Positions 1 to 57,321 of a DNA stretch of 64,000 nt are shown in pieces (position 1 is the stretch's first letter; each line of letters starts with the position of its first letter). The notes under the pieces were generated by a model. The model did not search any database, was not told the DNA's origin, and worked only from the letters and a program-made list of their open reading frames with translations. Both the position numbers and the translations under genes were made by a program. The DNA comes from Mobula hypostoma (taxonomy: Eukaryota), in NCBI RefSeq assembly GCF_963921235.1, contig NC_086108.1:16802001-16866000 (forward strand), read 5' to 3'.

Positions 1-540
1 GCATAATGCAACTTAACTAGCTTAGTTTGAACCTGTATATGTCCTAGAGCATTTACGTTATTTACCATGTGTTTGATTCCGTTGGTTTGAAGATGTATAT
101 TTTTACGTTTTATTGAATGTTTAATAAAACTGTAATAGTATTTGTAGCCCTTATTTATCCCACTTAACTATACGTTTTGTGTTTAATTTCATTGTGAAAA
201 GGTCAAAAAGAGCGTGGATAGGGAAAACCCGTAAGTTCTCTCTCCAGCACTCGTTGTTTGAGCACACAGACTTTTTTTCTTGTCATTATTCCCCAAACAA
301 CACAGTATAACAACTATTTACATAGCATTTACATTGTATTAGGTATTATAAGTAATCTAGAGATGATTTAAAGTATACGGGAGGATGTGCGTAGGTCCGG
401 AGCTCTCCCGGGTCCTAAAGTCCACCCGCACAGAGGCAGGTTAATTATCAATATAATTATCAATTTTCTAAAATCCGAAAAATTCTGAATTCCAAAATGC
501 AACTGGCCCCAAAGATTTCGGATAAGGGATTGTGGACCTG
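1..540 (+). mobile_element. Right part of a non-autonomous Tigger/pogo DNA transposon (left end outside window)
   Basis: Ends in TIR ...ATTTCGGATAAGGGATTGTGGACCTG followed by TA (541-542). Collinear with the complete copy at 25384-26227. Confidence 0.85.
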
Positions 541-649
541 TATTAATTCTTGATCTGTGCTGCTAAACCTTAACATTGGGATCAATGCTTTGTAAGGGGG
601 AAATAACCTAAGCTTTACTCTTGCCATCACCATTAAGTCCTCTGTTGAC

Positions 650-1437
650 TACTGGCCCTACATTCCTCTTTAGAACACCTGGAGAATAAAGATGCATACG
701 TAAGGTTCCTTTTCATTGACTACAGCTCTGCCTTTAATACCATCGTTCCAAATAAACTGATTCCTAAGCTCCGGAACCTGGACCTTAGCACTCAGATCTG
801 CAGCTGGATCTCAACTTCCTCACAGACAGTTTTTACGCTGTAAAAATAGGGGGCAAGCTCTCCTCTACAATCACTCTGAGCACCGGTGTCCCACAAGGCT
901 GTGTACTCAGCCCCCTGCTGTACTCACTGTACATCCATGATTGTGTAGCCAAGTTTCCATCAAACTCAATATATAAGTTTGCTGATGACACAGCAATTGT
1001 AGGCCGTATCTCGGGTAATGATGAATTTGAGTACAGAGAGGAAATTAAGAACCTGGTGGCATGGTGCGAAGACAATAACCTATCCCTCAACGTCAGCAAA
1101 ACAAAGGAATTGGTTGTTGACTTCAGAAGGAGTAGCGGACCGCACGACCCAACTTACATCAGTGGTGTGCAAGTGGAACAGGTCAAAAGCTTTAAGTTCC
1201 TCGGGGTCAATATCACAAATGACCTGGCTTGGTCCAACCAAGCAGAGTTCACTGCCAAGAAGGCCCACCAGCGCCTTTACTTCCTGAGAAAACTAAAGAA
1301 ATTTGGCCTGTCCCCTAAAACCCTCACTAATTTTTATAGATGCACCGTAGAAAGCATTCTTCCAGGGTGCATCACAACCTGGTATGGAAGTTGTTCTGTC
1401 CAAGACCGAAAGAAGCTGCAGAAGATCATGAACATGG
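650..1437 (+). mobile_element. Rex1/Babar-type LINE RT fragment, disrupted
   Basis: Translates to PQGCVLSPLLYSLY..KFADD and continues in ORF 1056-1559 (WCEDNNLSLNVSKTKELVVDFRR, KFLGVNI, AHQRLYFLRKLK). Boundaries approximate. Confidence 0.8.
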
Positions 1438-1891
1438 TACTGATAATTATCTTGAGATTCAATTTCTTTCAGTCATTTACAGGAAAAAATGCCAGCGATT
1501 ACCTGTCAGGATTTGATTCCCACTGCTGTTTGTTAGGAGTTTACACGTTCAGCCTGTGACCACATGGGTATCCTCTCCAAATATGTATGGTCAGGGCCTG
1601 TGTTAGTGCACTGTGGGCATGCTATATTGGTGCTGGAAACATCACAACATTTGTGAGCTGCTTGCAGCACAATCCTAGGGCTATGTTGGTCGTTGACATA
1701 ATATAAAACACTTCACAGTATGTTTCAATGTACATGTGACAAATAAAGCTCATTTATTCAATCTACGGAAAAAGCAGAACAAATTATCTCCACAAACAAC
1801 AGGAATTCTGCAGATGCTGGAAATTCAAGCAACATACATCAAAGTTGCTGGTGAACGCAGCAGGCCAGGCAGCATCTATAGGAAGAGGCGC

Positions 1892-1927
1892 AGTCGACGT
1901 TTCAGGCCGAGACCCTTCGTCAGGACT
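1892..1927 (-). ncRNA. Minimal type I hammerhead ribozyme motif, mirror copy
   Basis: Exact reverse complement of 1928-1963. Confidence 0.8.
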
Positions 1928-1963
1928 AGTCCTGACGAAGGGTCTCGGCCTGAAACGTCGACT
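1928..1963 (+). ncRNA. Minimal type I hammerhead ribozyme motif (PLE-type)
   Basis: AGUC-CUGACGA-AGG(GUCUCGG)CCU-GAAA-CGUC^GACU: intact core, helix I AGUC/GACU, helix II AGG/CCU, palindromic ACGU helix III. Predicted cleavage after C1959. Confidence 0.8.
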
Positions 1964-2171
1964 GCGCCTCTTCCTACAAATTATCTCCACGATAGTTTTC
2001 TATGATTTTGATAGAATTTTAATAAGGAAATACCAATGAAGGAAAAACTGTACATAAAATCCACTAATATAATTACCACATCATGTTCATTAAAGCTCAG
2101 TTTGGGTCTTGCCAGGTTCTTTCACTGTCAGATCCCCAACATTAGTCCAAACGTAAATTAGAAATCTTAAG

Positions 2172-3018
2172 TCCAGAGAGATTTAGGCCAGTTAGAAGAG
2201 TGGGCTGAAAGATGGCAGATGGAGTTTCATGCTGATAAATGTGAGGTGCTACATTTTGGTAGGACTAATCAAAATAGGACATACATGGTAAATGGTAGGG
2301 CATTGAAGAATGCAGTAAAACAGAGGGATCTAGGAACAATGGTGCATAGTTCCCTGAAGGTGGAATCTCATGTGGATAGGGTAGTGAAGAAAGCTTTTGG
2401 TATGCTGGCCTTTATAAATCAGAGCACTGAGTATAGGAGTTGGGATGTAATGTTAAAATTGTACAAGGCATTGGCAAGGCCAAATTTGGAGTATTGTGTA
2501 CAGTTCTGGTCACTGAATTATAGGAAAGATGTCAACAAAATAGAGAGAGTACAGAGAAGATTTACTAGAATGTTACCTGGGTTTCAGCACCTCAGTTACA
2601 GAGAAAGGTTGAACAAGTTGGGTCTTTATTCTTTGGAGCGTAGAAGGTTGAGGGGGGACTTAATAGAGGTATTTAAAATTATGAGGAGGATAGACAGAGT
2701 TGACGTGGATAGGCTTTTTCCATTGAGAGCAGGGGAGATTCAAACAAGAGGACATGAGTTGAGAGTTAGGGGGCAAAAGTTTAGGGGTAACATGAGGGGG
2801 AACTTCTTTACTCAGAAAACGAGCTTCCAGCAGAAGTGGTAGAGGCAGGTTCGATATCATCATTTAAAGTAAAATTGGATAGATATATGGACAGGAAAGG
2901 AATGGAGGGTTATGGGCTGAGTGCAGGTCAGTGGGACTAGGTGAGATTAAGCGTTCGGCACGGACTAGAAGGGCCGAGATGGCCTGTTTCCATGCTGTAA
3001 TTGGTATATGGTTATATA
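2172..3018 (+). mobile_element. CR1 LINE, 5'-truncated 3' end
   Basis: ORF 2219-2842 with CR1 ORF2 C-terminal motifs (KCEVLHFG, RPNLEYCVQFWS, LERRRLRGDLIEVFK); CR1-type 3' UTR and TATGGT-like tail. Confidence 0.9.
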
Positions 3019-3751
3019 AGTGAGGTAATAGTGACAAACCTTCACAAGAAGGCACAATATGAATCAGCATATCATGAAGGAGCAGTAGCAATACAGTTGT
3101 CAATGTAGTGCAGAAAGAGTTGGGGAGTTAGTCAGATACAGCCTTCCCTAAGCAGATCCATCCTGTCTTTGAAAATTCTATTCCGTATTAAATGGAGTTT
3201 TATACCATCTCTCAGAATTGATTTCAGTAATTTATGCGAACATAAAATTAAAGTAACTGGCTTGTAATTACTTTGTTTATCCTTTCTTTCTTCTTAAGCA
3301 ATGGTACAACATTAACAACCCTCCCGTAGCTAGAGATAATTGCCAAATTATGGCCATGGCTTCTGAAATTGCTTTCCTTTTACATCCTGGGATACATTTC
3401 TTCTGGGAATGGTCACATATTCATTTCCAAAGGTATTTTGCATGCGGAAATTTTACTTTAATGTGTTTTTTCCATCCACTTATACACATCATCCATCAGT
3501 ATATCATTAGTATTATGCCCTTTTTTGCAAACACAGCTACAAGCTACAAAGTATATTAATTATCAAAGTATGCATGCAGCACACAACCCTAAGATTCGTC
3601 TTCTCCACAGAGAGCCACAAAACAAATAAAACCATGGAATTGATTCAAAGAAAAACACCAAACACCACACACACAAAAAAAGAACAACAAATCGCACGAA
3701 TGGCAAAAAAAAAGCGGAAAACGCAGAATATAAACTCAAAAGAGTACAGGC

Positions 3752-4990
3752 CACATTTAGATCCTCTCCAGTTCACCTACCAGCCCCGACTAGGAGTTGC
3801 GGATGCCATCGTCTACCTGCAGAACCGTGTCTACGCCCACCTGGACAAGCCAGCGACCACTGTGAGGGTCATGTTTTTTGACTTCTCCACCATCCGCCCT
3901 GCTCTGCTGGGGGAGAAGCTGACAGCGATGCAGGTGGATGCTTCCCTGGTATCATGGATTCTTGATTACCTGACTGGCAGACGACAGTACGTGTGCTTGC
4001 AACACTGCGTGTCCGACAGAGTGATCAGCAGCACTGGGGATCCACAAGGGACTGTCTTGTCACCCTTTCTCTTCACCATTTACACCTCGGACTTCAACTA
4101 CTGCACAGAGTCTTGTCATCTTCAGAAGTTTTCGGATGACTCTGCCGTAGTTGGATGCATCAGCAAGGAAGATAAGGCTGAGTACAGGGCTAAGGTAGGA
4201 AACTTTGTCACATGGTGTGAGCAGAATTATCTGCAGTTAATGTGAAAAAGACTAAGGAGCTGGTGGTAGACCTGAGGAGAGCTAAGGTACCAGTGACTCC
4301 TGTTTCCATCCAGGAGGTCAGTGTGACATGGTGGAGGATTACAAATACCCGGGGATACGAATTGACAATAAACTGGACTGGTCTAAGAACACTGAGGCTG
4401 TCTACAAGAAGGGTCAGAGCTGTCTCTATTTCCTGTGGAGACTGAGGTCCTTCAACATCTGCCGGACGATGCTGAGGATGTTCTAAGAGTCTGTGGTGGC
4501 CAGTGCTATCATGTTTGCTGTTGCGTGCTGGGGCAGCAGGCTGAGGGTAGCAGACACCAACAGAATCAACAAACTTATTCGTAAGGCCAGTGATGTTGTG
4601 GGGATGGAACTGGACTCTCTCACGGTGGTGTCTGAAAAGAGGATGCTGTCTAAGTTGCATGCCATCTTGGACAATGTCTCCCATCCACTACATAATGTAC
4701 TGGGTGGGCACAAGAGTACATTCAGCCAGAGACTCATTCCACCGAGATGCAGCACAGAGCGTCATAGGAAGTCATTCCTGCCTGTGGACCATCAAACTTT
4801 ACAACTCCTCCCGTGGAGGGTCAGACACCCTGAGCCAATAGGCTGGTCCTGACTTATTTCATAATTTACTGGCATAATTTACATATTACTATTTAACTAT
4901 TTATGTTTCTATTACTATTTATTATTTATGGTGCAACTGTAACAAAAACCAATTTCCCCCGGGATCAATAAAGTATGACTATGACTATGA
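3752..4990 (+). mobile_element. Rex1/Babar LINE, 5'-truncated, frameshifted
   Basis: RT motifs DPLQFTYQP, PQGTVLSPFLFTIY, KFSDD; (ACTATG)n tail after AATAAA. Near-identical 3' part at 21397-22083. Confidence 0.9.
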
Positions 4991-5217
4991 CCATATTCAG
5001 TTCACATCTGCAGGCCTCCCCAATCAAAATTGCCCAAAACAGCAACAAAAAGGAAGAGCTACCAGAAACCAGAAACACACCGCAATGTGAACCACAGAAT
5101 CCAATCCACAAATCGTGTCGATCAAACCCTGGCCAAAACCCAGAAATCCAGCACCATCATCAGAAAGCATCATGGGAGAGAGACCATTCAAACGCAGGGA
5201 CCTTCCTTCGGGAGCTG

Positions 5218-5560
<343 letters not shown>

Positions 5561-5867
5561 GCAAATGAACCTTCACGCACAGACACCCTCCTCCGGCATC
5601 AACAAATGAGAGGATGGTGGACAGGCTGAATACCCGTTGCCCTCTGCACTCGCCTTGATGATTTCAATCTTTCTTGGTGATTTGGTCAGTGAGATCAGGG
5701 AGAAATGGAGGCGATCAAGGGCTCATGCCCCATCTCCAGGTTTCTTGGCCTTGAGACTGCACGTTTTACGTGAAGTCTCATGGAACCCTCTCGGTGACAG
5801 GAAAGTGCCAGATTGCTCAATTGGCCCAACGACACACCACTAAGCTGCAGATCACAGGCTCCAGCAG

Positions 5868-7990
5868 AACCATACCATAGAAACCATAGAACCATAGAAA
5901 CTACAGCACAGAAACAGGCCCTTTGGCCCTTCTTGGCTGTGCCGAACCATTTTCTGCCTAGTCCCACTGACCTGCACACGGACCACATCCCTCCATACAC
6001 CTCCCATCCATGTATCTGCCCAATTTATTCTTAAATGTTAAAAAAGAACCCGCATTTACCACCTCGTCTGGCAGCTCATTCCATACTCCCACCACGCTCT
6101 GTGTGAAGAAGCCCCCCCTAATGTTCCCTTTAAACTTTTCCCCCCTCACCCTTAACCCATGTCCTCTGGTTTTTTTCTCCCCTTGCCTCAGTGGAAAAAG
6201 CCTGCTTGCATTCACTCTATCTGTACCCATCATTATCTTATATACCTCTATCAAATCTCCTCTCATTCTTCTACGCTCCAGGGAATAAAGTCCTAACCTA
6301 TTCAACCTTTCTCTGTAACTGAGTTTCTCAAGTCCCGGCAACATCCTTGTAAACCTTCTCTGCACTCTTTCAACCTTATTTATATCCTTCCTGTAATTTG
6401 GTGACCAAAACTGAACACAATACTCCAGATTCGGCCTCACCAATGCCTTATACAACCTCATCATAACATTCCAGCTCTTATACTCAATACTTTGATTAAT
6501 AAAGGCCAATGTACCAAAAGCTCTCTTTACGACCCTATCTACCTGTGACGACACTTTTAGGGAATTTTGTATCTGTATTCCCAGATCCCTCTGTTCCACT
6601 GCACTCCTCAGTGCCTTACCATTAACCCCGTATGTTCTACGTTGGTTTGTCCTTCCAACGTGCAATACCTCACACTTGTCAGTATTAAACTCCATCTGCC
6701 ATTTTTCAGCCCATTTTTCCAGTTGGTCCAAGTCCCTCTGCAGGCTCTGAAAACCTTCCTCACTGTCTACTACATCTCCAATCTTTGTATCATCAGCAAA
6801 CTTGCTGATCCAATTTACCACATTATCATCCAGATCATTGATATAGATGACAAGTAACAATGGACCCAGCACTGATCCCTGTGGCACACCACTAGTCACA
6901 GGCCTCCACTCGGAGAAGCAATTCTCTACCACCACTCTCTGGCTTCTTCCATCGAGCCAATGTCTAATCCAATTTACCACCTCTCCATGTATACCTAGCG
7001 ACTGAATTTTCCTAACTAACCTCCCATGCAGGACCTTGTCAAAGGCCTTACTGAAGTCCATGTAGACAATATCCACTTTCCTGGTAACCTCCTTGAAAAA
7101 CTCCAACAGATTGGTCAAACATGACCTACCACGCACAAAGCCATGTTGATTCTCCCTAATAAGCCCCTGTCTATCCAAATGCTTGTAGATTCTGTCTCTT
7201 AGTACTCCCTCCAATAACTTACCCACTACCGACGTTAAACTCGCTGGCCTATAATTTCCCGGATTACTTTTCGATCCTTTTTTAAACAACGGAACAACAT
7301 GAGCCACTCTCCAATCCTCCGGCACTTCACTCGTAGACAGCGACATTTTAAATATTTCTGCCAGGGACCCTGCAATTTCAACACTAGTCTCCTTCAAGGT
7401 CCGAGGGAACACTCTGTCAGGTCCCGGGGATTTATCCACTTTAATTTTCCTCAAGACAGCAAGCACCTCCTCCTTTTCAATCTGTACAGTTTCCATGGTC
7501 TCACTACTTGATTCCCTCAATTCCATAGATTTCATGCCAGCTTCCTTGGTAAATACAGACGCAAAAAACCTATTTAAGATCTCCCCCATTTCCTTTGGTT
7601 CCGCACAAAGCCGACCACTCTGATCTTCAAGAGGACCAATTTTATCCCTTACAATCCTTTTGCTCTTAATATACTTGTAAAAGCTGTTTGGATTATCCTT
7701 CACTTTGACTGCCAAGGCAAACTCATGTCTTCTTTTTGCCCTCCTGATTTCTTTCTTAAGTATTTTCATGCACTTCTTATACTCCTCAAGCACCTGATTT
7801 ACCCCCTGTTTCCTATATATTTCATACAACTCCCTCTTGTTCTTTATCAGAGTTGCAATATCCCTTGAGAACCAAGGTTCCTTATTCCTATTCAATTTGC
7901 CTTTAATCCTGACAGGAACATACAAACTCTGCACTCTCAAAATTTCCCCTTTGAAGGCTTTCCACCTACCAATCACATCTTTGCCAGAAA
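5868..7990 (-). mobile_element. CR1 LINE, 5'-truncated (no endonuclease), uninterrupted RT reading frame
   Basis: ORF 5958-8057 with KSPGPD, NYRPASLTS, DFSKAFD, GVPQGSVLGP, KFADD; (TATGGTT)n tail at 5868-5900. Confidence 0.95.
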
Positions 7991-8007
7991 CATAGTTGAA
8001 AGAAAAA

Positions 8008-8178
8008 CAAGCAACACACATAAAAATTGCTGGTGAAGACAGCAGGCCAGGCAGCACCTATAGGAAGAGGTACAGTTGACATCTCCTCCTATAGATGCTG
8101 CCTGGCCTGCTGCGCTCACTAGCAATTTTTATGTGTGTTGCTTGAAATTCCAGCATCTGCAGATTTCCTCGTGTTTGC
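8008..8178. mobile_element. Short PLE pLTR foldback insertion, hammerhead core absent
   Basis: TSD GTTGAAAGAAAAA at 7995-8007 and 8179-8191; inverted arms of about 60 bp. Confidence 0.8.
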
Positions 8179-17779: not shown

Positions 17780-18270
17780 AGAAACATGGAAAACCTACAG
17801 CACAATACAGGCCCTTTGGCCCACAAAGTTGTGCCGAACATGTCCCTACCTTAGAAATTAGTAGGCTTACCTACAAGCCCTCTACTTTTCTATTATCTAT
17901 TATCCTTCCTGTAGTGAGGCGACCAGAACTGAGCACAGTACTTCAAATGGGGTAGCCTCACTACAGGAAGGATGTGGAAGCCACAGAAAGGGTGCAGAGA
18001 AGATTTACAAGGATGTTGCCTGGATTGGGGAGCATGCTTTATGAGAATAGGCTGAGTGAACTCGACCTTTTCTCCTTGGAGTGATGGAGGATGAGAGGTG
18101 ACCTGATAGAGGTGTATAAGATGATGAGAGGCATTGATCATGTGGCTAGTCACAGGCTTTTTCCCAGGGCTGAAATGGTTGCCACAAGAGGGCACAGGTT
18201 TAAGGTGCTGGGGAGTAGGTACAGAGGAGATGTCAGGGGTAAGTTTTTCACTCAGTGAGTGGTGAGTGCA
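17780..18270. mobile_element. Rearranged CR1 3' end with internal inversion
   Basis: Minus-strand tail and ORF2 piece (17780-17950) followed by a plus-strand ORF2 piece (17955-18270). Confidence 0.7.
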
Positions 18271-32920: not shown

Positions 32921-35900
32921 CCCCTTAGAAAGGACCGTCTGCACCTGGGCTGGACTAGAACCAATGTCCGAGGGGGAGCGTTTGCTACTGTTGTTCGGGA
33001 GGATTTAAACTAATGTAGCAGGGGGATGGGAACAAGTGCAGAGAGACAGAGGGGTGCAAAATGAGGGTAGAAGCAAAAAGTAGTAAGGTGAAAAGTAAAA
33101 ACGGCAGGCCGGCAAATCCAGGGCAAAAATCAAAAAGGGTCACTTTTCAACATAATTGTATAAGGGCTAAGAGTGTTGTAAAAGCAAGCCTGAAGGCTTT
33201 GTGTGTCAATGCAAGGAGCATTTGTAACAAGGTGGATGAATTGAATGTACAGATAATTATTAATGAATATGATATAGTTGGGATCACAGAGACATGGCTC
33301 CAGGGTGACCAAGGATGGGAGCTCAACATTCAGGGATATTCAATATTCAGGACGGACAGACATGAAAGAAAAAGAGGTGGGGTGGCATTGCTGGTTAGAG
33401 AGGAGAATAACACAATAGAAAGGAAGGACATTAGCCGGGAGGACGTGGAATCGATATGGGTAGAGCTACATAACACTAAGGGGCAGAAAACGCTGGTGGG
33501 AGTTGTGTACAGGCCACCTAACAGTAGCAGTGAGGTTGGGGATGGCATTAAACGGGAAATTAGAAATGCCGCAATAAAGGAACAGCAATTATAATGGGCG
33601 ACTTCAATCTACATATAGTTTGGGTGAACCAAATTGGTAAGGGTGCTGAGGAAGAGGATTTCTTGGAATGTATGCGGGATAGTTTTCTGAACCAACATGT
33701 CGAGGAACCAACTAGAGAGTCGGCCATTCTGGACTGGGCAGTGATCAATAAGGAAGGGTTAGTTAGCAATCTTGTCGTGAGAGGCCCCTTGGGTAAGAGT
33801 GACCATAATATGGTGGAATTCTTCATTAAGATGGAAGGGTAACTTTGAAGGTAGGAGACATCAATTAGCCAAGATAGACTGGCAAATGATACTTAAAGGG
33901 TTGATGGTGGATATGCAATGGCAAGCATTTAAAGATCGCATGGATGAACTACAACAATTGTTCATCCCAGTATGGCAAAAGAATAAACCAGGGAAGGTAG
34001 TGCACCCATGGCTGACAAGGGAAATTAGGGATAGTATCAATTCCAAAGAAGAAACATACAAATTAGCCAGAAAAAGTGGCAAACCTGAGGACTGGGAGAA
34101 ATTCAGAGTCCAGCAGAGGAGGACAAAGGGCTTAATTAGGAAAGGGAAAAAAGATTGAGAGAAAGCTGACAGGAAGCATAAAAACTGACTGTAAAAGCTT
34201 TTATAGATATGTAAAAAGATTGGTTAAGACAAACGTAGGTCCCTTACAGTCAGAAACAGGTGAATTGATCATGGGGAACAAGGACATGGCAGACCAACAG
34301 AATAACTACTTTGGTTCTGTCTTCACTAAGGAGGACATAAATAATCTTCTGGAAATAGTAGGGGACAGAGGGTTTAATGAGATGGAGGAACTGAGGGAAG
34401 TACATATTATTAGGGAAGTGATGTTAGGTAAATTGAAGGGATTAAAGGCAGATAAATCTCCAGGGCCAGATGGTCTGCATCCCAGAGAAGTAGCCCAAGA
34501 AATAGTGGATACATTAGTGATAATTTTTCAAAACTCTTTAGATTCTGGATTAGTTCCTGAGGATTGGAGGGTGGCTAATGTAACCCCACTTTTTAAAAAA
34601 GGAGGGAGAGAGAAACTGGGGAATTATAGACCGGTAAGCTTGACATCAGTAGTGGGGAAAATGCTAGAGTCAGTTATCAAAGATGTGATAACAGCACATT
34701 TGGAAAACGGTGAAATCATCGGACAAAATCAGTACGGAATTGTGAAAGGAAAATCATGTCTGACGAATCTCAGAGAATTTTTTGAGGATGTAACTAGTAG
34801 AGTGGATAGGGGAGAACCAGTGGATGTGGTATATTTGGATTTTCAAAAGGCTTTTGACAAGGTCCCACACAGGAGATTAGTGTGCAAACTTAAAGCACAT
34901 GGTATTGGGGGTATGGTATTGATGTGGATAGAGAATTGGTTGGCAAACAGGAAGCAAAGAGTGGGAATAAACGGGACCTTTTCAGAATGGCAGGCGGTGA
35001 CTAGTGAGGTAATGCAAGGCTCAGTGCTAGGACCCCAGTTGTTTACAATATATATTAATGACTTAGACGAGGGAATTAAATGCAGCATCTTCAAGTTTGC
35101 GGATGTCACAAAGCTGGGCGGCAGTGTTAGCTGTGAGGAGGATGCTAAGAGGATGCAGGGTGACTTGGATAGGTTAGGTGAGTGGGCAAATTCATGGCAG
35201 ATGCAATTTAATGTGGATAAATGTGAGGTTATCCACTTTGGTGGCAAGAACAGGAAAACAGATCATTATCTGAATGGTGGCCGATTAGGAAAAGGGGAGG
35301 TGCAAAGAGACCTGGGTGTCACTGGGTGGGCATGCAGGTACAGCAGGCAGTGAAAAAGGCAAATGGTATGCTGGCATTCATAGCAAGAGGATTCGAGTAC
35401 AGGAGCAGGGAGGTACTCCTGCAGTTGTACAAGGCCTTGGTGAGACCACACCTGGAGTATTGTGTGCAGTTTTGGTCCCCTAATCTGAGGAAAGACATGC
35501 TTGCCATAGAGGGAGTACAAATAAGGTTCACCAGATTGATTCTTGGGATGGCAGGACTTTCATATGATGAAAGACTGGATCAACTAGGCTTATACTCTCT
35601 GGAATTTAAAAGATTGAGGGGGGATCTGATTGAAACGCATAAAATCCTAAAGGGATTGGACAGGCTAGATGCAGGAAGATTGTTCCCGATGTTGGGGAAG
35701 TCGAGAATGAGGGGTCACATTTTGAGGATAAAGGGGAAGCCTTTTAGGACCGAGATGAGGAAAAACTTCTTCACACGGAGAGTGGTAAATCTGTGGAATT
35801 CTCTGCCACAGGAAACAGATGAGGCCAGTTCATTGGCTATATTTAAGAGGGAGTTAGATATGGCCCTTGTGGTTAAAGGGATCAGCGGGTATGGAGAGAA

Positions 35901-36009
35901 GGCAGGTACAGGGTTGAGTTGGATGATCTGCCATATTCGTACTGAATGGCGGTGCAGGCTCAAAGGGCCAAATGGCCTACTCCTGCACCTATTTTCTACG
36001 TTTCTATGT
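32921..36009 (+). mobile_element. CR1 LINE with near-complete ORF2 (APE and RT), disrupted, nested in an older minus-strand CR1 tail
   Basis: VNARSI, GITETWL, VYRPP, GDFN, SDH (APE); ORFs 34220-35353 and 35326-36069 (RT and C-terminus); TSD TTATTC at 32915-32920 and 36010-36015. Confidence 0.92.
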
Positions 36010-36792
36010 TTATTCTTCCAAACTCCTGTGAGTACAGGTCCAGAGTCATTAATGGTCCTCATACATTAACCCATTCATTGCCAGGAATCATTCTCATAGT
36101 AATATTATTAATGAGACAATAATACCTTGATTAGTCCTAATGAAGGATCTCAGCCTGAAATGTCACATGTTTATTTCCCTCCATAGATGCTGTCTGACCT
36201 GCTGAGTTCCTCCAACATTTTGTAAGCTGCTCAATAGTTATCTTGATATGCTCATTCTTTTGGTGGAGGTCCTGAATATAAACAGTATCCCCTACTTCTA
36301 CTTTTTCACTTCATGAGTGGTTTTGATCAAGTGGCATGGTGACATGCAATCAAGTTTGACATGCATTTTTTGTGTTTGGAATGCTGTTTCTCAATAGAGT
36401 TCTGTTGGGCTCAATACTAGGCCTCTTGCCTTTTGTAACAAACATTATTAACTTAGACTTAAATGACATTTGCATGTTTTTTTTAAAAAAATGGCCATAC
36501 AGTTAACAGTAAAAATGAAACTTTGGACTGCAGTAGGATATTGATGGACTGATAACGTGGGCAGAAAAATGGTGAATGGAATTCTATCCAAGGGATGAGA
36601 GGTAATCCAGAGGATGTGCAATAAGGCAAGGGAATACACTATAAGGAGGAAGATACACTCAATTATGGAAGATCAGTGGCACTTTGGAATTTATGACTAA
36701 AAGGAGAAAGACAGATCAATGGCATGGTTAATATATAAATGATTTTTCCTTTATTAGCTTAAGAAAAAAGGGGGCCACATGGGCAGAGCAAA

Positions 36793-37600
36793 GTGATGAT
36801 GGCGCTATATGGCGACTCCTTTGCTTGCATCTTTGGAAACAACTCTATTTCCATCTTTAATATCTCTATTCATCCCTTTCAGGGTTCTTTTGAAGACCCT
36901 GACCTGGAGTTACACGCAGGCTACGGGTCTTTGTGGGAATGGGACCCGCCCTCAGAGTTTCATAACCGGCCACTGCTTGGCACGCCAAGGGTTCGGCCTA
37001 AGAGTTCAGCTCAGCTTTGGAGGCCTAGGATCTCAGAGCTCTGGAGATGGGTGGATCGAAGGTCGTGTCATGGCTGGAGACCCGTGTGTCATCAGGGAAG
37101 TCGGAATATCTACGGCTGTGTGCCCAGAGACTCAAGATCTCTGGGCACAGAGCTCGAAAAAAGTGACGTAACAGACATCGTAAACCAGCAAGTTGTTTGT
37201 TATGTCTCTCTGCTCGCTGTGAAACAGAGACACCTCTTTCTCCCTTATTAGGGAGAGAGAGAGAGAGAACCTGTGGTATGTCGAATGCCAGGTGAACAAT
37301 GTAATTTTTGGGGTAACTGCAAGTCTGTGTCTTTACTGTTGCTTTGCTCACTCCTGAGTGCTGAGTGCCGGGTGCCGATGCTTTTTTTTGCTGGTGGGGA
37401 GTAGGGAGATTGTTGCTTGCTGCCACCTGTGCACCAGAGGGAGGGGAGCTGGGGGGGGGGTGGTCTTTGGGGTTCTAACATTTAACTGCTGTTCATTCTT
37501 TGGGACACTCCTCTGTTTTCATGGATGGTTGTGAAGAAAAAGCATTTCAGGATGTATACTGTATACATTTCTCTGACATTAAATATATGTTTGAAAACTT
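36793..37600 (+). mobile_element. Non-coding LINE-derived element with GATGATGGCG 5' end and Rex1-like tail
   Basis: Starts GTGATGATGGCG; ends TTCAGGATGTATACTGTATACATTTCTCTGACATTAAA; lies inside an old CR1 relic. Confidence 0.45.
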
Positions 37601-38535
37601 TAAAACACAAAATATAACATTCTGCTAAAAAACTAGCTGGCCACAACTTAAGTTCCACGTGGAAGTTCTGGTTATCACATCACATGAATGATATGATTAC
37701 TATAGAAAGATTTATGATTGGAAATTTTAAACCACTAAAAGATATTACACTACATTTTGTTTTGTCTGGAACAGAAACTAATTGGAGATTTAATAGAGTA
37801 GTATAATATCTAAAAGGGGACCACATAGAGGAAATAGGAAAGACATTTAATGTGTCAAAAAAGGGGCAGAGACACAATTAATGAGATCAGAGATGAGGAA
37901 AAATATTTCTATCCAGAAAGTGGCAGGGGTTTGAAATTCACTGAAAGGTGAAAGAAGCATAAATTTTCTTTATATTTAAAATCTACTTGGTTCTGCAATT
38001 GAAGAACCACAATCTTTGGAGCTACAGAGCTTGTGCTGCAAGGTGTTATTAACCTGGATAGCTATTTTCGGACTGGCTCAGGTAGAACTGATAGAACCTT
38101 CATCTCTGTCAAGAACTTTATATCATTCTATAGTTTATTATTTTCTACAATAAACTGAAAAAAAAATTCTAGATATTGGTGTCAAATCCTGCTAGTAACT
38201 CCAGTTGTCCCAGGTAATTTCAATTTTGAAAGTTGCAAAATAACACTGTGGATCTGGCTGCAAGTTTCAATCACAGTACCAAAGAACACACATAACTAAA
38301 CTATTCATATTGTCTCCAAGAATATCAGCATGATTAACTTTTGTTGTGAAATGAATTTCTTCTTAGATCTAATCCTCGAAGCTGACTGGAGTCAGAGAGT
38401 TTGGAACTGTCAGATGATTAACAATGAAACCACAGGAAATCCAGCTTTGTAAGATCAGATGCAAAGGTATGTATCAACAAATCAGGTGTCCAGATTTAAA
38501 GCCTTATAAAAAATTGAGAAATGAGTAACAAAATA

Positions 38536-39933
38536 CAAACCCCATTTCCAGAAAAGTTGGGATATTTTCCAAAATGCAATAAAAACAAAAATCTCTGATA
38601 TGTTAATTCACGTGAACCTTTATTTAACGGACAAAAGTATAAAGAAAACATTTTCAATAGTTTTACTGACCAACTTAAACATACAGAAATTTAGAATTTG
38701 ATGGCTGCAACACACTCAACAAAAGTTGGGACAGAGGCATGTTTACCCATTGTGTTACATCATCTTTCCTTTTAATAACACTTTTTAATCGGTTTGGAAC
38801 TGAGGATACCAATTGTAGTAGATTTGCAATTGGAAATTTTGTCCATTCTTGCTTGATATTAGACTTCAGCTGCTCAACCGTCCGCGGTCTCCGTTGTCTG
38901 ATTCTCCTCTTCATGATGCGCCATACATTTTCAATAGGAGATAGATCTGGACTGGCAGCAGGCCAGTCAAGCACACACACTCTGTGTCTACAAAGCCACG
39001 TTGTTGTAGCCCATGCAGAATGTGGTCTGGCATTGTTCTGCTGAAATAAGCCTGGACGTCCCAGGAAGAGACATCGCCTTGATGGCAACATATGTCTCTC
39101 TAAAATCCTAATATACACCTCAGAGTCAATGGTACTCTTCACATACATGCAACTCACCCATGCCATGGGCACTGATGCACCACCGTACCATCACGGATGC
39201 TGGCTTTTGCACCTTTCGCTGATAACAATCTGGATGGTCGTTTTCATCTTTGGCACGGAGAACTCAATGCCTGTATTTTCCGAAAACTAGCTGAAATGTG
39301 GACTCATCTGACCACAGCACACGGTTCCACAGTCTTTCAGTCCATCTGAGATGAGCTCAGGCCCAGAGAACTCGCCGGCGTTTCTGCATAGAGTTGATGT
39401 ATGGCTTCTTCCTTGCGTAATACAGTTTCAAGTTGCATTTCTGGATGCAGCGACGGACTGTGTTAAGTGACAACGGTTTTCCGAAATACTCCCGATCTTG
39501 CGTTGAGAAATGTTCCTTTTGAACTGACTAACAATTCTCTCACGAATTTTGGCACAAAGGTGTGAGCCACGACCCATCCTTGCTTGCAAAGACTGAGCCT
39601 TTGATGGATGCTACTTTTATACCCAGTCATGCTACCTGCTACCAATTAGCCTGCTTAATGTGGAGTCTTCCAAACCGGTGTTACTTGAATATTGTGTGCA
39701 CTTTTCAATCTCATTTCAACTCTGTCCCAACTTTTGTTGAGTGTGTTGCAGCCATCAAATTCTAAATTTGTGTATATTTACAAAATACAATTAAGTTGGT
39801 CAGTAAAACTATTGAAAATCTTTTCTTTGCACTTTTGTCAGTTAAATAAAGGTTCACGTGAATTAACATATCACAGATTTTTGTTTTTATTGCATTTTGG
39901 AAAATATCCCAACTTTTCTGGAAATGGGGTTTG
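38536..39933 (-). mobile_element. Tc1 (DD34E) transposon with long TIRs, internally deleted and inactive
   Basis: TA-CAAACCCCATTTCCAGAAAAGTTGGGA...TCCCAACTTTTCTGGAAATGGGGTTTG-TA; about 200-bp TIRs with an internal direct repeat; FQQNNARPH-(34 aa spacing)-SPDLSPIENVW, second catalytic D changed to N. Confidence 0.95.
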
Positions 39934-42900
39934 TATAATTCACAAAAGGACCTACTGGGAACAATCCATTATTCCCTAATTATATTTATCAGATTGTATT
40001 CCAATGCCAGATATACAGAATGGCAAGAACGATAACTATTACACAACTTGGACATTTTTTTTAAATCAGTTAGTTGAAAATTAAGTTATGCAGTAATCAA
40101 TGGATCATCTCCAAAAGCAGTTATTTTATCATAGTAAATAACATGCAGTGAATAAGCTGTGAGATGTACAAATATACTTAAAGAAAATTCAAATGCTTTA
40201 CATTCAATTACATGAATCTAAAGTTCACACTTTTACTTTTTAAATGACTGTAACTGTATTGTTTTAACGATACAGGAATGTTCCAACAAATCAGCAATTT
40301 AAAAATGTCACTACTAACCTTTGGAACTGAGAGCTTAATATTTGATTATTAAATCCATGGTAAAATAAACGCCCTTTGCCATGATAAAGAATGCATTTCA
40401 GCATCTCTGATTGCACCAGTTCCTTTCTCACACTAGGGTGTCATGGGAAGTATGCTTTCATTTCAAGAGCTAAAATTAATACATACCTGGGTACGCATCA
40501 TTGAGGCCAAAAAAACTGATGACATGCTGTGATCACATGACAGCTGACCATGGCTTAATTAGTTATTAATTTTTAACATTTGCAGCAGGTGCACAATTTA
40601 CTAAGAAAAAGTGAAACTAATTCATTACGACAATGCATCTGTGTGTCAGTGTTTCAACAACTACCGTAAATCCTCTTGCATTATACTTTCCTGTAAAATT
40701 CCAAAACATACTAATAATTTTTTAAAATCCTAAGTATTATTTCAAATATGGTTGTTTTCCCTGTGGGGTAAGGCCATTTAAACAAGGCTTAAGGCACTGA
40801 GTTAAGGTATACAATCATGATACGTGTATTCCATCATTTATATTTTCACTGTTTCATCTGCCCTTTCTTATTTTATACATTCATCTGGTTCCCCTATCAT
40901 ATTTTGTGCAGTGATCTCATAATGACTATTTGGCTAAACACAGAACTTTAATGATTTAAAGGAACCCAAGAGTTTTCGGATTTGACCCTTTGTTCTGCTT
41001 AGTTGACGTGAGCTGAAGCAATGATGAGAGTGCTAATTTAGGGTTGGTGCCCCTGGGGAAATCAATTAGCATTCTAGCTTCTGAAGATTATATATTAAGT
41101 CATGACAGGATCAGGTGTGATCTAACCTTCCTCTGCCCACCCTCTGACAGCTCAATATTCTGCTTGGTCCTGCTTTTTAGCTTCATACACAACTGGATCA
41201 CATTAGATGAGACAAAGACAAACCACCTACATTCCTGGATTGATATTTTCACAAGAGTCAATAATTTTTCAAAAGCAAAAAGTTTATACAAAAGCAAAAA
41301 AAAAAAGGGCAATATCACAATTAATTCTACAGGAATAATGGCCAGATTGTAATGTTGAGCTTCTGCAATAATTTTAATCAAGACTGTGCCCACTGGATCT
41401 GCTTAATGCGATTAGTAAAATACTATGGAAATGACACATCAGAATGCCTCAAATCCTGTGAAACCAATCAAATCAATTACTGTGAAATAGCAGCAATCTT
41501 CCAGATAATATGGATCCCACTAACCTAACAGAGGAAAGCATTATCATAAAACTGTCCTTTACGTATGGAGTACAGTGTGCATTATTAGCAATTAATGAGA
41601 CTACCATACAGCTATTCTATGAGTATGAATCCAAATTTAAGACTATTGAAATATGAACCATTAAAGAACCACACCACAGACAACTGATGCACTATTTGTA
41701 ATTTTGAACGAGTGTAAGATAAAAGGGATTCCTCTCCTATTCTACAACTGCATCACAAAATTTTAAAAAAATACCATACATCTTGAGTGAAATATAATTG
41801 GTATTCCCCTTCAAGAAAAAGACAGAATATAAATGTTGATAGACTCTCAACATTAACAATGCAATATACTGTCTATGAAAACAAAAACATTAAAGAAGAA
41901 ATTCTATACTCAAAAGAATATTGAGTTTACAGCCACACAAACTCATTGTAAAATGAGCATTGGTTACATAGCTATAGTTGTTTTGGGTGGGGAAAGAGAA
42001 ACACAATTTAACTTCTGACCAGAGTGATACTGAATAAATGACCCAAATGCATTAATTTCCTAAGCAAGGCAGGGCATTAAAAAGAAACTGTGGAAGGTAT
42101 CAAACATAATTCCTAACTTAGAGCACTTAGGGTTTTGTTTTAAATCAAATACCAAGTTAGCGCAGAAAGAATAAATGAAAAACAAAGAAAAACATGCAGG
42201 TGCTGGAAATCTGGAATGAGAATACATTTTGCTCAGCAATGATGAAGAAATTGAAAATTATCAAAGTTGCAGAGAACACACCACTCTGATCTATCTTTCT
42301 GTGCTGTCATGAGTTCTGATGTAAATTTGAGAAACCGTGTGTCAATTTGCGTTGCAATTTGCAGCCTTCCAGACTCAAAATCAACAATTCCAGGTAATTC
42401 ACTTTGTTTGCATCTGAACCGTATATTCTATTTCTTTTACTATTATCGATTATAATAGTAAGCTCCACTAACATTGCTTGATCTGCTGGGCATTTTAATT
42501 TGCAGTTTACAGCTTTTGTACCTTATTTTTGCTCATGTTCTCCATCTGTAACTGCTCCTTTTAACCTATCAACCAGATGGTTTCATCAACAGTTTATCAC
42601 TATGGCAACCATCACCTTGCATATCAGAAAAATTCCCATTGTCGTATCTATCCTTCGCCCACCCTCAGTGCAATTTAAAAACTAATTTGTTTTTCTTTCC
42701 TGACAAAGGGTGTTCAACCAGAAATATTCAATCTGTTTCTTTTTCCACATGCTGCCTGACTTGCCGAACGTTTTCAGCATTTCATTTTTATTTTCTTATA
42801 TCCTCCTTATGACACACAAAGCTCTGCAGCTCATCAAATCTATGCCAGCTCTCTGATCATACCAAACCTCAATTTAATTTCCTACAACCTATTCGTTTTC

Positions 42901-45070
42901 ACACTATCATTAACAACCTTTATCCATTTTCTTAACAATCATCTAACAGATTTACAGTTAGCCAATAACTTAACAACTGGCAGATTTTGGAAGCTGAGAA
43001 AAAAAATAATAAAAACCCAGGGAACCCCATGTGGTTAGAACAGAAAGTGCTAACTCCACACAACCAACAAGAAATTAGTGATTAAACCAGTCAGTGAAAC
43101 AGTGAAGTAGCTGCTTTCCCTGCCATGTTCAAATAAATGTATTTGCAATACGAGAAATTTTGACTTTTAGCCTAAGTGATTGGAATTGCATTACTAAAAT
43201 GATAGGAAATTTAATTATATGATATAAAATGCACAGGTTGCTAAATCAAATGACAGTTCCTGTTCTTACACAATGACGTTGTTCCTCTGCAATACCTAAT
43301 AAGGGAGGAACTTGTATATTACCTAGTACTATTCACCATTGAGTCACACAGCCCTAATGCTGGAGGAACTTGCATATTACCCAGCTCCATTCACCATTGT
43401 TGTACGGCATAGAAACAAGACCTTCGGCTCAACTTATCTAACTGTCTAGCCCGATAAACTAATCCCTTCTGCTCGTGCTGGACCCATTGCCCTCTAAACC
43501 TCCTCTATCCATGTACTTATCTATATGGCTTTTAAACATTGCCCAAACAATGTTAAACCAATGCCCTCGCTTTTTAACATACTCTTCCTGGGAAAAAGAC
43601 TTTCACCTTGTCTAAGCCTTCTTGATCTTATATACCTCCATCAGGTCAGCCCTCAATCTCCTACACTCCAGGGATAATGTCCTAGTCTACACAATTTTTC
43701 CTTGTAACTCAGGCCCCCAAAGTCCAGGCAACGTCAAAGTAAGTCTTTTCTGTATTCTTTCTAGTTTAATAACATTTTTTCTGTTACAGGGTGACCAAGA
43801 CTGTACACAATACTCAAAGAGCAACATCACCTATATCTTATATAACTACAATATTGTTTGCATGATTTGTTTTGATATTTTTCCTCTTTCTCTGTAGGCA
43901 CTTGGGGTTTAGTCTTTTTTTTTAATTGGGTTATTTTGTGACTGCCTGTTAAGCAAACTAATCTCAAGGTTGTATAATTTATAAAGTTGTTGATAATAAA
44001 TGCACTTTGAATATTTGAATCTTGAACATAAATTCCCAATTCCTATACTTGGTTCTAACTGATGACAGCCAGGATATCAAACACCACCTTCATTTACCAC
44101 TCGATATACCCATAATGCTGCTTTCAGCAAACTGTGCACTTGCACTCTTAAGTGCCTTTGTTCCATAACACTTTTCAAGGCCCAGTTTTGGGCTTGTTTA
44201 TTGTTAATAATGGACTCCAACATCTTCCCAACCACCTAAGTCAAGATAACTGGCTTATAATTTCCTGTCTTTTGCCTTAGCCTCAATATCTTTCGTCAAC
44301 CTTGTCCTTCATTCTAACAGAAACATGCAGGCCCTAAATTTTTGACATCATACTTTAAAAGGCTTGCCACTTGGCACACACTCTTTTCCCTATGAACAAT
44401 TTTGCCCAATTAACTGCTGTAATATCCTGTCTAATGGCTCCAAAATTTGCTCTGCCCAAGTTCAGGTCCTTAACCAACTGTATCCTTCTCCATAAATATT
44501 TTAATACTAATAGAGTTGGTTTCAGATTTATGGAGAAGGATAGATCAGGTCTTTGAGTTGGGATTCTAAATTAAAGAAAGGCCTATTTTAAATGCATCAG
44601 AAAGGATATGTCAAGTCTGGATTGAGATAAGTTGTTTCCTGGCAACGGTGTGCTTAGTAAGTGGGAGGCCTACAAAAGTGAAATTTTGAGATTTCAGAAT
44701 TTGCATGTTCCTGTCAGAATCAAAGGCTAGGCACCAGATTAACCTGAACCATTGGGCTCCTGAACCAAAGTGGATAACTTCACTCACCCCAGCACTGAAC
44801 TGATTCCATAACCTATGGTCTCACTTTCAAGGACTCTACAATTCAAGTCCTCAACATTATTTATTACACATTTTTATTATTATTATTATTTTGTTTTCTT
44901 TTTGTATTTGCACAATTTGGCGTCTTTCGCTCATTGTTGTTTGTCCATCTTTGTGTGCAGATTTTCATTGATTCTATTGTGTTTCTTTGTATCTACTGTG
45001 AATGCCTACAAAAATGAATCTCAGGGTTGAATATAGAAACATATATATATGCAGTAAGTACTTTTAATAA

Positions 45071-45645
45071 TGGGGTGTATGGGGTGTCAAGGAGGGGTAG
45101 CACCTCTGGTGGGGGAACATGCCGCGTCCTTTTCAGGGCGGTTAGTCCACCTTTGGTCCCCACCTGGCACTCAGCTCTCACCTGTGGCTCCCCGTAGCTG
45201 TTTGCATGCGACAGCGGCCACACCCCGGGCAACGGCTTCGACAAGCCGGCTAAACCGGGTGAGGGTAGCCGACGGGTCTCAAACCCTCGGTGTGATAGGG
45301 AGTTGTCTATCCCAGCATGTGAAGACAGACTCCGGCGGATTGAGCGGACGAGACCTATGGAAGGTCCAACGGTCAAGAAGGCGGTCTCTGCAAGCGTCGT
45401 GGAACATGTAGAGCAGTACAAGACACAGAAGACGTCCTGGTCAACCACTGCGCCTAGTCCCATCTCCAGCTGTCTAGACTCTGTCTTGCCACTGGATCCA
45501 GATGGGAATTGGGAAGAGAGAGTGAGGCTGACGCTGCGCAACTCTCCCTCACTTAAATCCAAATCACGCGCTAGTCTCGACACCATCATACTGGTGTCGA
45601 GGTCCTCATCGATGTCAATGATGGACGAACAACACGCACAACAAC
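45071..45645 (+). mobile_element. Bipartite non-autonomous RTE derivative (RTE 5' UTR fused to RTE 3' tip)
   Basis: 45072-45589 aligns with 22090-22585; 45595-45633 aligns with 27219-27257; TSD ACTTTTAATAA at 45060-45070 and 45646-45656. Confidence 0.9.
45072..45263 (+). ncRNA. Putative HDV-like self-cleaving ribozyme, all helices intact
   Basis: P1 45072-78/45220-26, P2 45177-84/45256-63, P3 45186-88/45217-19, P1.1 C45190-91/G45227-28, P4 45233-38/45243-48, J4/2 GCUAA with C45250. Confidence 0.75.
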
Positions 45646-46988
45646 ACTTTTAATAAATAAGTTTGATAATAAATACGTTAAGACTTTATTCCCTGGAGCA
45701 TAGGAGATCTGATAGAGGTATACAAAATTCAGGCAGACCTTTTCCACTGATGTTGAGTGAGATTAGAGGTCATAAGTTAAGTGTAAATAGATAGGAGGGG
45801 TGTAGAGGGCTATGGTCCAAGGCAAAAAAACAATTCCAGTTGCAGTTAGAGGTAGAATCTGCTGCATGTCAACTTTGGCAGGTTTTGTAGGCCATTACTT
45901 CCGACAAAGTAAAACCTAATTATTATGAATGGCTGTAATGCTTCACTTCCAGATGAGCTCAACACCTTTTATGCCATCTATAATTCTGATGACAACACAA
46001 CTATTGTCACAACAGATCGAAGGTTGAGCAGTAACACCTTGTACTTAATGTCAGCAAGACCAAGGAATTATTGTGGACTTCAGGGGAGGGAAATCGAGGG
46101 ACTACACACCAGCCTCATTAATAAATCAGTAAGTGGAAATGGTGAGCAGTTTCAAGTTCCTAGGTGTCAATATTTCTGAGGATCCATCCTGGCCCCAACA
46201 TATTGATGAATTACAAACAAGAGAAAATCTGCAGATGCTGGAAATCCAAGCGACACACACAAAATGCTGGACGACTCAGCAGGCCAGGCAGCAGCTATGG
46301 AAAAAAGTACAGTCATACAGTCAACATTTTGGCCCAAGACCCTTCAGCAGGACTGGAGCAAAAAGCTGAGGAGTAGATTTAAAAGGTGGGAAGAGGGGAG
46401 ACAGAAACACAAGGTGATAGGTAAAACCTGAAGGGGGAGGGATGAAGTAAAGAGCTGGGAAGTTGGTTGATAAAAGAGATACAGGACAGAAATGGGAGTC
46501 TGATAGAAGTGGATAGAAGGCCCTAGAAGAAAGGGGGGTCTACCCAGATGGAATATAACCAGAATCAGGTTTATTATTACCAGCATTGTTAACTTAGTAG
46601 CAGCAGTTCAATGCATAATATAGAATTTTTAAAAAGTAAATCAATTACAGTATATGTATATTGAATAATTAAAAATTGTGCAAAAACATAAATATATTAA
46701 AAAAGTGAGGCAGTGTTCATGGGTTCAATGTCCATTTAGGAATCAGATGGCAGAGGGGAAAAACCTGTTCCTGAATGGCTGAGTGTGTGCCTTCAGGCTT
46801 CTGTACCTCCTACGTGATGGTAACAGTGAGAAAAGGGAATGCCCTGGGTGCCAGGGGTCCTTAATAATGGACGCTGCCTTTCTGAAACACCGTTCCTTGA
46901 AGATGTCCTGGGTACTTTGTAGACTAGTACTCAAGATGGAGCCAACTAAATTTATGACCCTCTGCAGCTTCTTTTGGTCCTGTGCAGT

Positions 46989-47122
46989 TAGGGGTGCCAA
47001 TTTTCTCACTCCCAAATAAGGGACAAAAGGTGGCATGCCGCGACGGTGTGGGTATGGTGCAGGCCAGGGATGAAGTGACTGAGGGGGCTAGCAGCTAGCA
47101 GATGGTAACAGGCACCTTCTTC

Positions 47123-47160
<38 letters not shown>

Positions 47161-52568: not shown

Positions 52569-53645
52569 ACACGAGGAAATCTGCAGATGCTGGAAATTCA
52601 AGCAACACACATAAAAAATGCTGGTGAACACAGCAGGCCAGGCAGCATCTATAGGAAGAGGTACAGTCAACGTTTCGGGCTGAGACCCTTCGTCAGGACT
52701 AACTGAAAAAAGAGAGAGTAAGAGATTTGAAAGTGGGAGGGGGAGGGGGAGATCCGAAATGATAGAAGAAGACCGGAGGGGGAGGGATGGAGCTAAGAGC
52801 TGGAAAGTTGATTTGGCGAAAGGGATACAAGGCTGGAGAAGGGAAAGGATCATGGGACGGGAGGCCTAGGGAGAAAGAAAGGGGAGGGGAGCTCGGAGGA
52901 TGGGCAAGGAATTATAGTGAGAGGGACAGAGGGAGAAAAAAAGAGAGAAAAACATAATAATAAATAAATAGATAGATAGATAGATAGATAAATAAATAAA
53001 TAAGGGATGGGGGCGCAGGATGAGACCGTTTCGCTGAACACGTATGCTCTGTCTGCCAGAGAAAGCAGCATCTCCCAGTGGCCACACATTTTAATTCCAT
53101 GTCCCATTCCCATTCTGATATGTCTATCCACGGCCTCCTCTACTGTCAAGATGAAGCCACACTCAGGTTGGAGGAACAACACCTTATATTCCGTCTGAGT
53201 AGCCTCTAACCTGATGGCATGAACACTGGCTTCTCGAACTTCCGTTAATGCCCCACCTCCCCTTCATACCCCATCCCTTATTTATTTATTTATTATTAAT
53301 TTTTTTTTTCTCTCTATTTTCTCCCTCTGTCCCTCTCACTATAACTCCTTGCCCATCCTCTTTGCTCCCCTCCCTTTTCTTTCTCCCTTGGCCTCCCGTC
53401 CCAGGATCCTCTCCCTTATCCAGCCTCGTATCCCTTTTGCCAATCAACTTTCCAGCTCTCAGCTCCATCCCTCCCCCTCCTGTCTTCTCCTATCATTTCA
53501 GGTCTCACCCTCCCCCTCCCACTTTCAAATCTCTTTCTAACTCTTCTTTCAGTTAGTCGTGACGAAGGGTCTCGGCCCTAAACATTGACTGTAACTTTTC
53601 CTATAGCTGCTGCCTGGCCTGCTGCGTTCACCAGCATTTTTAATA
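52569..53645. mobile_element. PLE insertion: inverted pLTR, GIY-YIG C-terminus, pLTR
   Basis: About 380-400 bp inverted arms (about 52614-53011 and 53269-53641); centre encodes RFAEH..PVATHFN..RLEEQHLIFRL..PDGMN; TSD AGATCATAAATGGAA (52554-68) / AGATTGTAAATGGAA (53646-60). Confidence 0.9.
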
Positions 53646-53678: not shown

Positions 53679-53821
53679 CTGCATCTGTTAGTCCTGACGA
53701 AGGGTCTCGGCCTGAAACGTCGACTGCGCCTCTTCCTATAGATGCTGCTTGGCCTGCTGCGTTCACCAGCAACTTTGATGTATGTTGCTTGAATTTCCAG
53801 CATCTGCAGAATTCCTGTTGT
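53679..53821 (+). mobile_element. Short PLE pLTR insertion beginning just before an intact hammerhead
   Basis: TSD TTGCTGCATCAAA at 53666-78 and 53822-34; near-identical to 1794-1927. Confidence 0.85.
53690..53725 (+). ncRNA. Minimal type I hammerhead ribozyme motif
   Basis: Identical to 1928-1963. Confidence 0.8.
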
Positions 53822-57128: not shown

Positions 57129-57321
57129 ACAAACAACAGGAATTCTGCAGATGCTGGAAATTCGAGCAACACTTTGTACTCAATGCAAGGGTTGTCAACT
57201 CTTTCAAATCTCTTACTAACTCTTCCTTCAGTTAGTCCTGACGAAGGATCTCGGCCTGAAACGTCGACTGTACCTCTTCCTAGAGATGCTGCCTGGCCTG
57301 CTGCATTCACCAACAACTTTG
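57129..57321. mobile_element. Short inverted PLE insertion with intact hammerhead (57234-57269, plus strand)
   Basis: TSD ATCTTTAATTATTAC at 57114-57128 and 57322-57336. Confidence 0.85.

Follow-up and report, generated by a model that had tools for sequence, protein, structure and literature searches.

Positions 1794–1975 of the window, by which we mean the whole 64-kb stretch of DNA analyzed here, hold a 182-bp insert in which two copies of the same retroelement end meet head to head in an exact palindrome, and this insert is almost certainly an inverted insertion of a Penelope-like element (PLE). We consider it probable that two cDNAs, one primed from each target strand, built the insert and that they were joined where both had stopped, just 5' of a hammerhead ribozyme motif.

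A young insertion with an exact palindrome

The palindrome spans 98 bp (1879–1976) and consists of 49-nt arms that meet with zero spacer at an axis between 1927 and 1928. The runner-up exact palindrome anywhere in the 64-kb window has arms of merely 7 nt, and about 2e-25 palindromes of the focal kind are expected per window by chance. A direct repeat that matches at 15 of 15 positions (1779–1793 and 1976–1990) encloses the insert as its target-site duplication. The length of this duplication can be read as 13–15 bp, because one inner-edge base on each side (1793 and 1976) also fits the element: the last 1–2 bases of the left copy match the end of the element tail, and the first base of the right copy matches the element as well.

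We numbered the element so that +1 is the first base of hammerhead helix I. On this scale, a long arm on the minus strand (1793–1928, element −1 to +135) represents the 3' end module of a PLE, made up of the hammerhead, a spacer and a tail of about 45 nt (1794–1838, minus strand) that falls, in an alignment of arms, between the family's two common 3' end points, at about +90 and about +134. A short arm on the plus strand (1927–1976, −1 to +49) has an end point outside the common ones. Common to both arms is the self-complementary TA at the axis (1927–1928), a 2-nt microhomology.

The left arm is the reverse complement of a repeat end found many times across the window and is identical to one copy (53689–53824) at 135 of 136 positions. 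Because the two arms are identical, their CpG sites are intact (5/5 in each arm) and the duplication is perfect, the insert appears to be young. The first-pass annotation, which had described a spacer-less perfect palindrome within a young 182-bp insertion flanked by a 15-bp duplication, is borne out in each of these respects. A miniature inverted-repeat or foldback DNA transposon was considered and rejected, as the 85 bp on the left lack a mirror counterpart and the insert ends are those of a retroelement (+135 and +49).

The surroundings of the insert are decayed LINE pieces in a repeat-filled region, and many additional LINE and DNA-transposon fragments fill the window. Among them are an uninterrupted 699-aa LINE reverse-transcriptase frame (5958–8057, minus strand), further inverted junctions that apparently involve LINE fragments (56331–56949 and 17902–17973) and inverted repeats that measure about 210 bp, are 91% alike and flank a fragment labelled from its translation as a Tc1-like transposase (38533–39936).

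Assignment to a Penelope-like family

The insert itself is ORF-less; an ORF with reverse transcriptase (RT), plus a GIY-YIG endonuclease at its C terminus, upstream of the module is seen in sibling copies. In an older inverted pair of the same family (52567–53644), the plus arm leads from the end of a GIY-YIG frame (53039–53248) through a 3' untranslated region (UTR) to the hammerhead, and the same module in this copy (53030–53644) comes after the 3' UTR and the end of the reading frame. The frame end matches five proteins at 77–90% identity, with source names that correspond to two ray species. YxDD stretches resembling RT occur in three of the five, together with a CX4CxxC linker and a match to GIY-YIG at E values of 5e-4 to 2e-3, which fall short of the Pfam cut-off; the remaining two are a chimera with a hint of RNase H and a protein without a Pfam match. 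An older, longer family member with a broken frame (59183–60316, minus strand) encodes a CX4CxxC linker and a VIY-CxxC-YIG endonuclease motif. This 59.2–60.3-kb copy is 61% identical to protein P0001, and inspection by eye shows, in both P0001 and the copy (59.7–60.3 kb), a CX2-5CxxC linker and, between GIY and YIG, a pair of cysteines.

The Pfam GIY-YIG match in an ORF piece from the window has an E value of 0.068 and lies below the curated cut-off, searches of Pfam, NCBIfam and Atlas with ORF pieces from the window returned nothing above cut-off, and a PDB search gave no match; the window contains no complete RT. By the clade definitions in the available text of PMC8557442, the translated motifs would make this a Neptune- or Nematis-type family, sharing with those PLEs the C-terminal GIY-YIG with a CX2-5CxxC linker. 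The insert is best read as a recent insertion, 5'-truncated on both arms, of a Neptune-like PLE. Protein P0003, which carries the source name of a kinase-domain isoform, is almost entirely RT-endonuclease sequence of this PLE, pointing to mis-annotation or an exonised element.

Two hammerhead motifs, one on each strand

Each arm of the palindrome contains a minimal type I hammerhead motif. In the plus copy (1927–1964), helix I pairs 1928–1931 with 1960–1963, extended by U1927.G1964; the core consists of CUGACGA (1932–1938) followed by an additional A (1939), GAAA (1952–1955) and C17 at 1959; helix II pairs 1940–1943 with 1948–1951 and is closed by G.U; and helix III has shrunk to the self-complementary ACGU at 1955–1958. 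The putative cut lies between 1959 and 1960. The minus copy (1891–1928) is the mirror of the plus copy, with a putative cut at 1896/1895. A motif scan recovered the CUGANGA, GAAA and UH core, helices I and II and the palindromic 15.2–16.2 positions. At the G10.1–C11.1 closing pair, the insert's subfamily has G.U; across eight distinct copies, the pair is G–C in five and G.U in three, and the G–C at helix II closure is described as highly conserved in the accessible part of PMC4209133.

The motif resembles the hammerheads of PLE pLTRs, as far as PMC4209133 was available, in its 4–5-bp helix I, the additional base after position 9, the palindromic 15.2–16.2 and the lack of loop 3. It differs from them in that helix II has 4 bp rather than 7–8 and closes with G.U, and in that the two motifs abut. 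Earlier claims of one motif per strand with the axis at the 5' edge of helix I, which starts at 1928, and of a minimal dimer-type hammerhead of PLE origin are upheld by this anatomy and by the family module.

Among eight copies, all closely related, 90% of helix I and II cells are paired and there are no two-sided changes. An Rfam search of positions 1–6000 found no hammerhead family at E ≤ 1; a match to mir-3926 (RF03560) was rejected as a hairpin artefact, scoring 51.2 bits against a gathering threshold of 82 and equally on both strands. Scanning viral and metagenome contigs with a hammerhead-core pattern gave 0 matches, and a second family pattern matched 32 metagenome and 8 genome loci, all of which we set aside as chance matches of at most 33 nt. 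A literature search, with most subscription papers outside its scope, found no paper on a hammerhead from a cartilaginous-fish PLE.

On its own, the motif has a minimum-energy fold that buries the hammerhead core (−11.0 versus −7.0 kcal/mol). In read-through RNA, the palindrome is predicted to form a hairpin of 47 bp with a 4-nt loop (−102.3 kcal/mol, z −19.5); in either direction, the predicted pairing of the palindrome exceeds 0.9999, as against values on the order of 1e-23 or less for the hammerhead helices, with helix II at about 2e-23. The hairpin is thus predicted to abolish the ribozyme fold in read-through RNA. A transcript hairpin had been proposed at 49 bp, and the hairpin stands at the smaller size. 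Minimal motifs need a dimer to act, according to the available portions of PMC4209133 and PMC6765202; each transcript of the focal pair has just one sense motif, and the pair therefore cannot form a dimer. Dual hammerhead motifs on opposite strands, 100–700 bp apart, have already been published in the part of PMC4209133 that we cite, and with a single sense copy per transcript and a suppressed fold we find no support for treating the back-to-back arrangement as special. Judged by the sequence, use of the hairpin by Dicer or ADAR and extrusion of a cruciform would be possible.

Both cores are intact and the hairpin is highly stable, as might be expected of a functional paired-ribozyme or hairpin-RNA device, such as a switch or a source of siRNA. 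We find such a device highly improbable: the insert is young and sits within a repeat-filled region, the hairpin precludes the ribozyme fold whichever way it is transcribed, an inverted pair cannot provide the two sense copies that a dimer needs, and compensatory changes are absent in the eight distinct copies.

Other copies of the family in the window

Aligning 17 arms to one natural copy placed 10 of their 3' ends at +132 to +139 and five at +86 to +92. On this map, the family has two common 3' ends separated by about 45 nt, which is the PLE 'tail'. Four further inverted insertions lie at 8.0–8.2, 52.6–53.6, 57.1–57.3 and 57.4–57.5 kb, with exact duplications of 13, 9, 15 and 13 bp, respectively, and there are four older single copies with duplications of at most 8. 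A young sibling copy that is not inverted (53686–53824, plus strand) has a 13-bp duplication and is 5'-truncated 1–2 nt upstream of the position of the focal axis. An inverted 5'-truncated copy, an optional tail at one end and a target duplication of variable length are all found here; an adjacent inverted 5'-truncated copy is typical of PLE insertions in the available text of PMC8557442, and that of PMC3846280 describes inverted structures with junction palindromes as abundant in PLEs.

In all four of the other inverted insertions, each arm carries sequence absent from its partner. With neither arm contained in its partner, each must have been copied from RNA separately rather than by foldback. 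The 57.1- and 57.4-kb inserts each have two arms without overlap, which abut at the boundary of the tail in the manner of twin priming.

Several further details of these copies deserve record. Junction filler at 57170–57200 appears to be a templated insertion, its first 19 nt being the exact reverse complement of flanking sequence at 57579–57597, about 250 bp beyond the insert. The copies at 17589 and 57201 are 5'-truncated at −34 and −33, possibly a second preferred stop or a transcript start. Nine additional bases (53679–53687) separate the duplication of the sibling copy from the start of its element and resemble part of the duplication. Insertions also cluster locally, with 40 bp between the 52567–53644 pair and the 53686–53824 copy and 50 bp between the two inverted inserts at 57.1–57.5 kb.

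Junctions at other loci in sequencing-run contigs

We compared positions 1500–2160 with contigs from two samples (organisms A and B), sequenced in four runs. Records per run ranged from 34,697 to 53,232, and the family is very abundant, with the proviso that depth is not equal to copy number. Of 528 joints, 15 were listed, and 12 of these are inverted junctions at other loci, in which an antisense arm is linked with a sense one. At these 12, the arms share 1–4 letters in ten cases and at least two in nine; at least two shared letters are expected by chance in 16%, which gives a binomial probability of 8e-6 among the joints listed, a list that was tool-chosen from contigs and in which the flag 'between: not known' marks 10 of the 12. 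The joint from 1861 to 1928 has a sense arm that begins at helix I and is present in X1, X2 and X5; the comparison reference contains no native sequence upstream of 1927, which may inflate starts at 1928–1929. Loose ends at 1793/1794 occur in 4/4 runs, the same outer end as in the arm map.

Organism B carries the left flank with 4 differences in 232, and two of its contigs cross the axis with fewer than 31 letters on one side, below the bridging criterion. The joint of an empty allele is absent among the 15 of 528 listed, and the right flank is poorly covered in all four runs. Other listed joints, 1964 to 1928 (X2 and X5) and 1958 to 1927 (X6, with its mirror in X5), run back over the hammerhead. 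Their layout suggests head-to-tail tandem hammerhead units of about 35–40 nt at other loci, an arrangement that would be able to cleave as a dimer.

These contigs also bear on whether the palindrome could be an assembly or library artefact in the form of a fold-back chimera. None of the listed pieces spans the focal locus, and none of the contigs listed for X1 and X2 spans the axis, a point in favor of such an artefact. An artefact would also mirror flanking sequence, whereas the palindrome ends at the element boundaries between dissimilar flanks, and the insert is framed by its 15-bp duplication much as the neighboring inverted inserts are framed by theirs. We therefore rate an artefact as very unlikely.

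A probable route through two cDNAs, one from each target strand

The route that we favor would begin with cuts made about 15 nt apart in the two target strands by the element endonuclease. Reverse transcription would then be primed at the RNA tail by the top-strand end and at an internal point of the RNA, +49, by the bottom-strand end. Both cDNAs would halt at the same base, −1, immediately 5' of helix I of the hammerhead, and would anneal at their 3' ends via the self-complementary TA, each templating the other. Equal stops and a self-complementary overlap would therefore give a spacer-less palindrome, and unequal stops would give imperfect inverted junctions of the kind seen elsewhere. We infer the order of events, the enzymes and the use of one or two RNA templates; to cover one 49-nt stretch with two cDNAs takes two RNAs or else displacement on a single RNA, which counts against this route.

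Among about 130 positions of the element RNA, +49 is the longest pairing site for the bottom-strand target end, with six pairs (four Watson–Crick and two wobble). Purified PLE protein, in the part of PMC11167929 available, cuts and extends both target strands, starting at two internal sites of the RNA, one at each boundary of the tail. A counterpoint is that the +49 end lies outside the two usual start points, which 15 of the 17 arms use. Hammerhead cleavage was rejected as the source of the axis: the cut would fall at +32/+33 rather than at −1. PMC11167929 describes hammerhead mutants as without effect on insertion in vitro. The hammerheads in the insert are passengers.

A second counterpoint to the two-cDNA route is that the long arm contains the short arm letter for letter, which foldback, or self-priming, also predicts. 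In that case, a single cDNA would halt at the edge of helix I, snap back, copy 49 nt of itself and join the other target end, and the non-standard end point of the short arm would fit. A weak native stem surrounds the axis (cDNA hairpin, −4.4 kcal/mol), and record 32 of X6, from organism B, crosses the axis with one other letter and two gap letters, counts that would fit foldback on this stem. Arkhipova et al. preferred self-priming for PLE junction palindromes in the available text of PMC3846280, and self-annealing of small hairpins with 2-bp microhomology has been proposed, in a source seen in excerpt, for L1-linked inverted duplications. Foldback on the native stem would, however, retain a 6-nt loop that is absent here, and the observed junction would require a non-templated base and a 2-nt loop. 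Loops of 2 nt of this kind are known. With none of the four other inverted insertions in the window a foldback product and the expected 6-nt loop missing, the cDNA foldback put forward in the first-pass annotation is no longer favored, and we give it a distinctly smaller chance than two cDNAs.

Alternatively, template switching or hairpin repair might later have perfected what was at first an inverted junction of the ordinary kind, its arms separated by a short spacer. Quasi-palindromes can be perfected during replication, and junctions near the focal axis occur at other loci (X5 record 24 and X6 record 32). Such a history calls for one more event in an insert that is very young, and the TA overlap already accounts for the junction; we consider it improbable.

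A possible stop at the hammerhead 5' edge

In the window, 3 of 13 short arms start at −3 to −1 (P = 0.002 for this fixed window and 0.17 for any cluster, in a test that excluded four long arms, counted the focal insert once and included two starts placed by eye). Among the direct joints listed from the contigs, 8 of 10 begin the sense arm at +1 to +11 (P of about 0.009 if starts were uniform); each of these counts is small or selected. We tentatively propose, as an idea with a minority of the probability on its side, that in this family the hammerhead's 5' edge, rather than its cut site, is a preferred stop for cDNA because that is where the template RNA starts or undergoes processing, and that the cDNAs of both strands meet at this edge and join by microhomology.

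Untruncated copies have a pyrimidine run and a CAG that ends 2 nt upstream of helix I, and in Drosophila Penelope an intron end maps to helix I, according to the available text of PMC4209133. As a splice acceptor, the site upstream of helix I is a weak candidate: pyrimidines make up 81% of the 3' UTR in any case, the AG lies only 13 nt from the branch-like A, and the 3' UTR contains no good donor.

Discussion

The focal locus is the zero-distance case of published opposite-strand hammerhead pairs and junction palindromes. Like the EN+ PLE insertions described in the available parts of PMC3846280 and PMC8557442, it has head-to-head arms, a junction palindrome, a tail on one arm and a short duplication; it differs from those published in that the insert is just 182 bp long and ORF-less, with a tail of about 45 nt as compared with 30–40. 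Its palindrome is exact over 98 bp, whereas those of the rotifer PLE insertions that we could consult measure 18 bp and, nearly perfect, 38 bp. Comparable palindromes may be present in figure 2 and the supplement of PMC3846280, a paper available to us in part.

L1 twin priming, as cited in the portion of 10.1101/2024.12.14.628481 available, offers a close parallel, in that both target ends are primed on RNA and the inverted pieces are joined with microhomology. The inserts at 57.1 and 57.4 kb fit L1-type twin priming directly, whereas the arms of the focal insert cover the same 49 nt, lack poly(A) and were, on our reading, primed at internal RNA sites. Non-LTR retrozymes (10.64898/2026.07.22.740005, seen in part) are likewise PLE-derived non-coding units with a type I hammerhead, but they form head-to-tail tandem arrays and the focal insert is a single inverted pair. 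We rejected membership in that class, which requires at least two head-to-tail hammerhead units; the focal units are inverted.

As a single locus, the insert carries little weight, being a neutral-looking member of a very abundant family that is known for inverted junctions. The junction anatomy of this family, with two start points, arms that overlap or abut and microhomology, is a feature that can test how Penelope elements build inverted ends. If cDNAs do stop preferentially at the hammerhead edge, the many young junctions of this family would be a natural data set for a choice between dual priming and self-priming, which the literature available to us describes as an unresolved point in PLE transposition. 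For the host genome, inserts of this kind would seed perfect hairpins, a possible source of dsRNA and of local instability.
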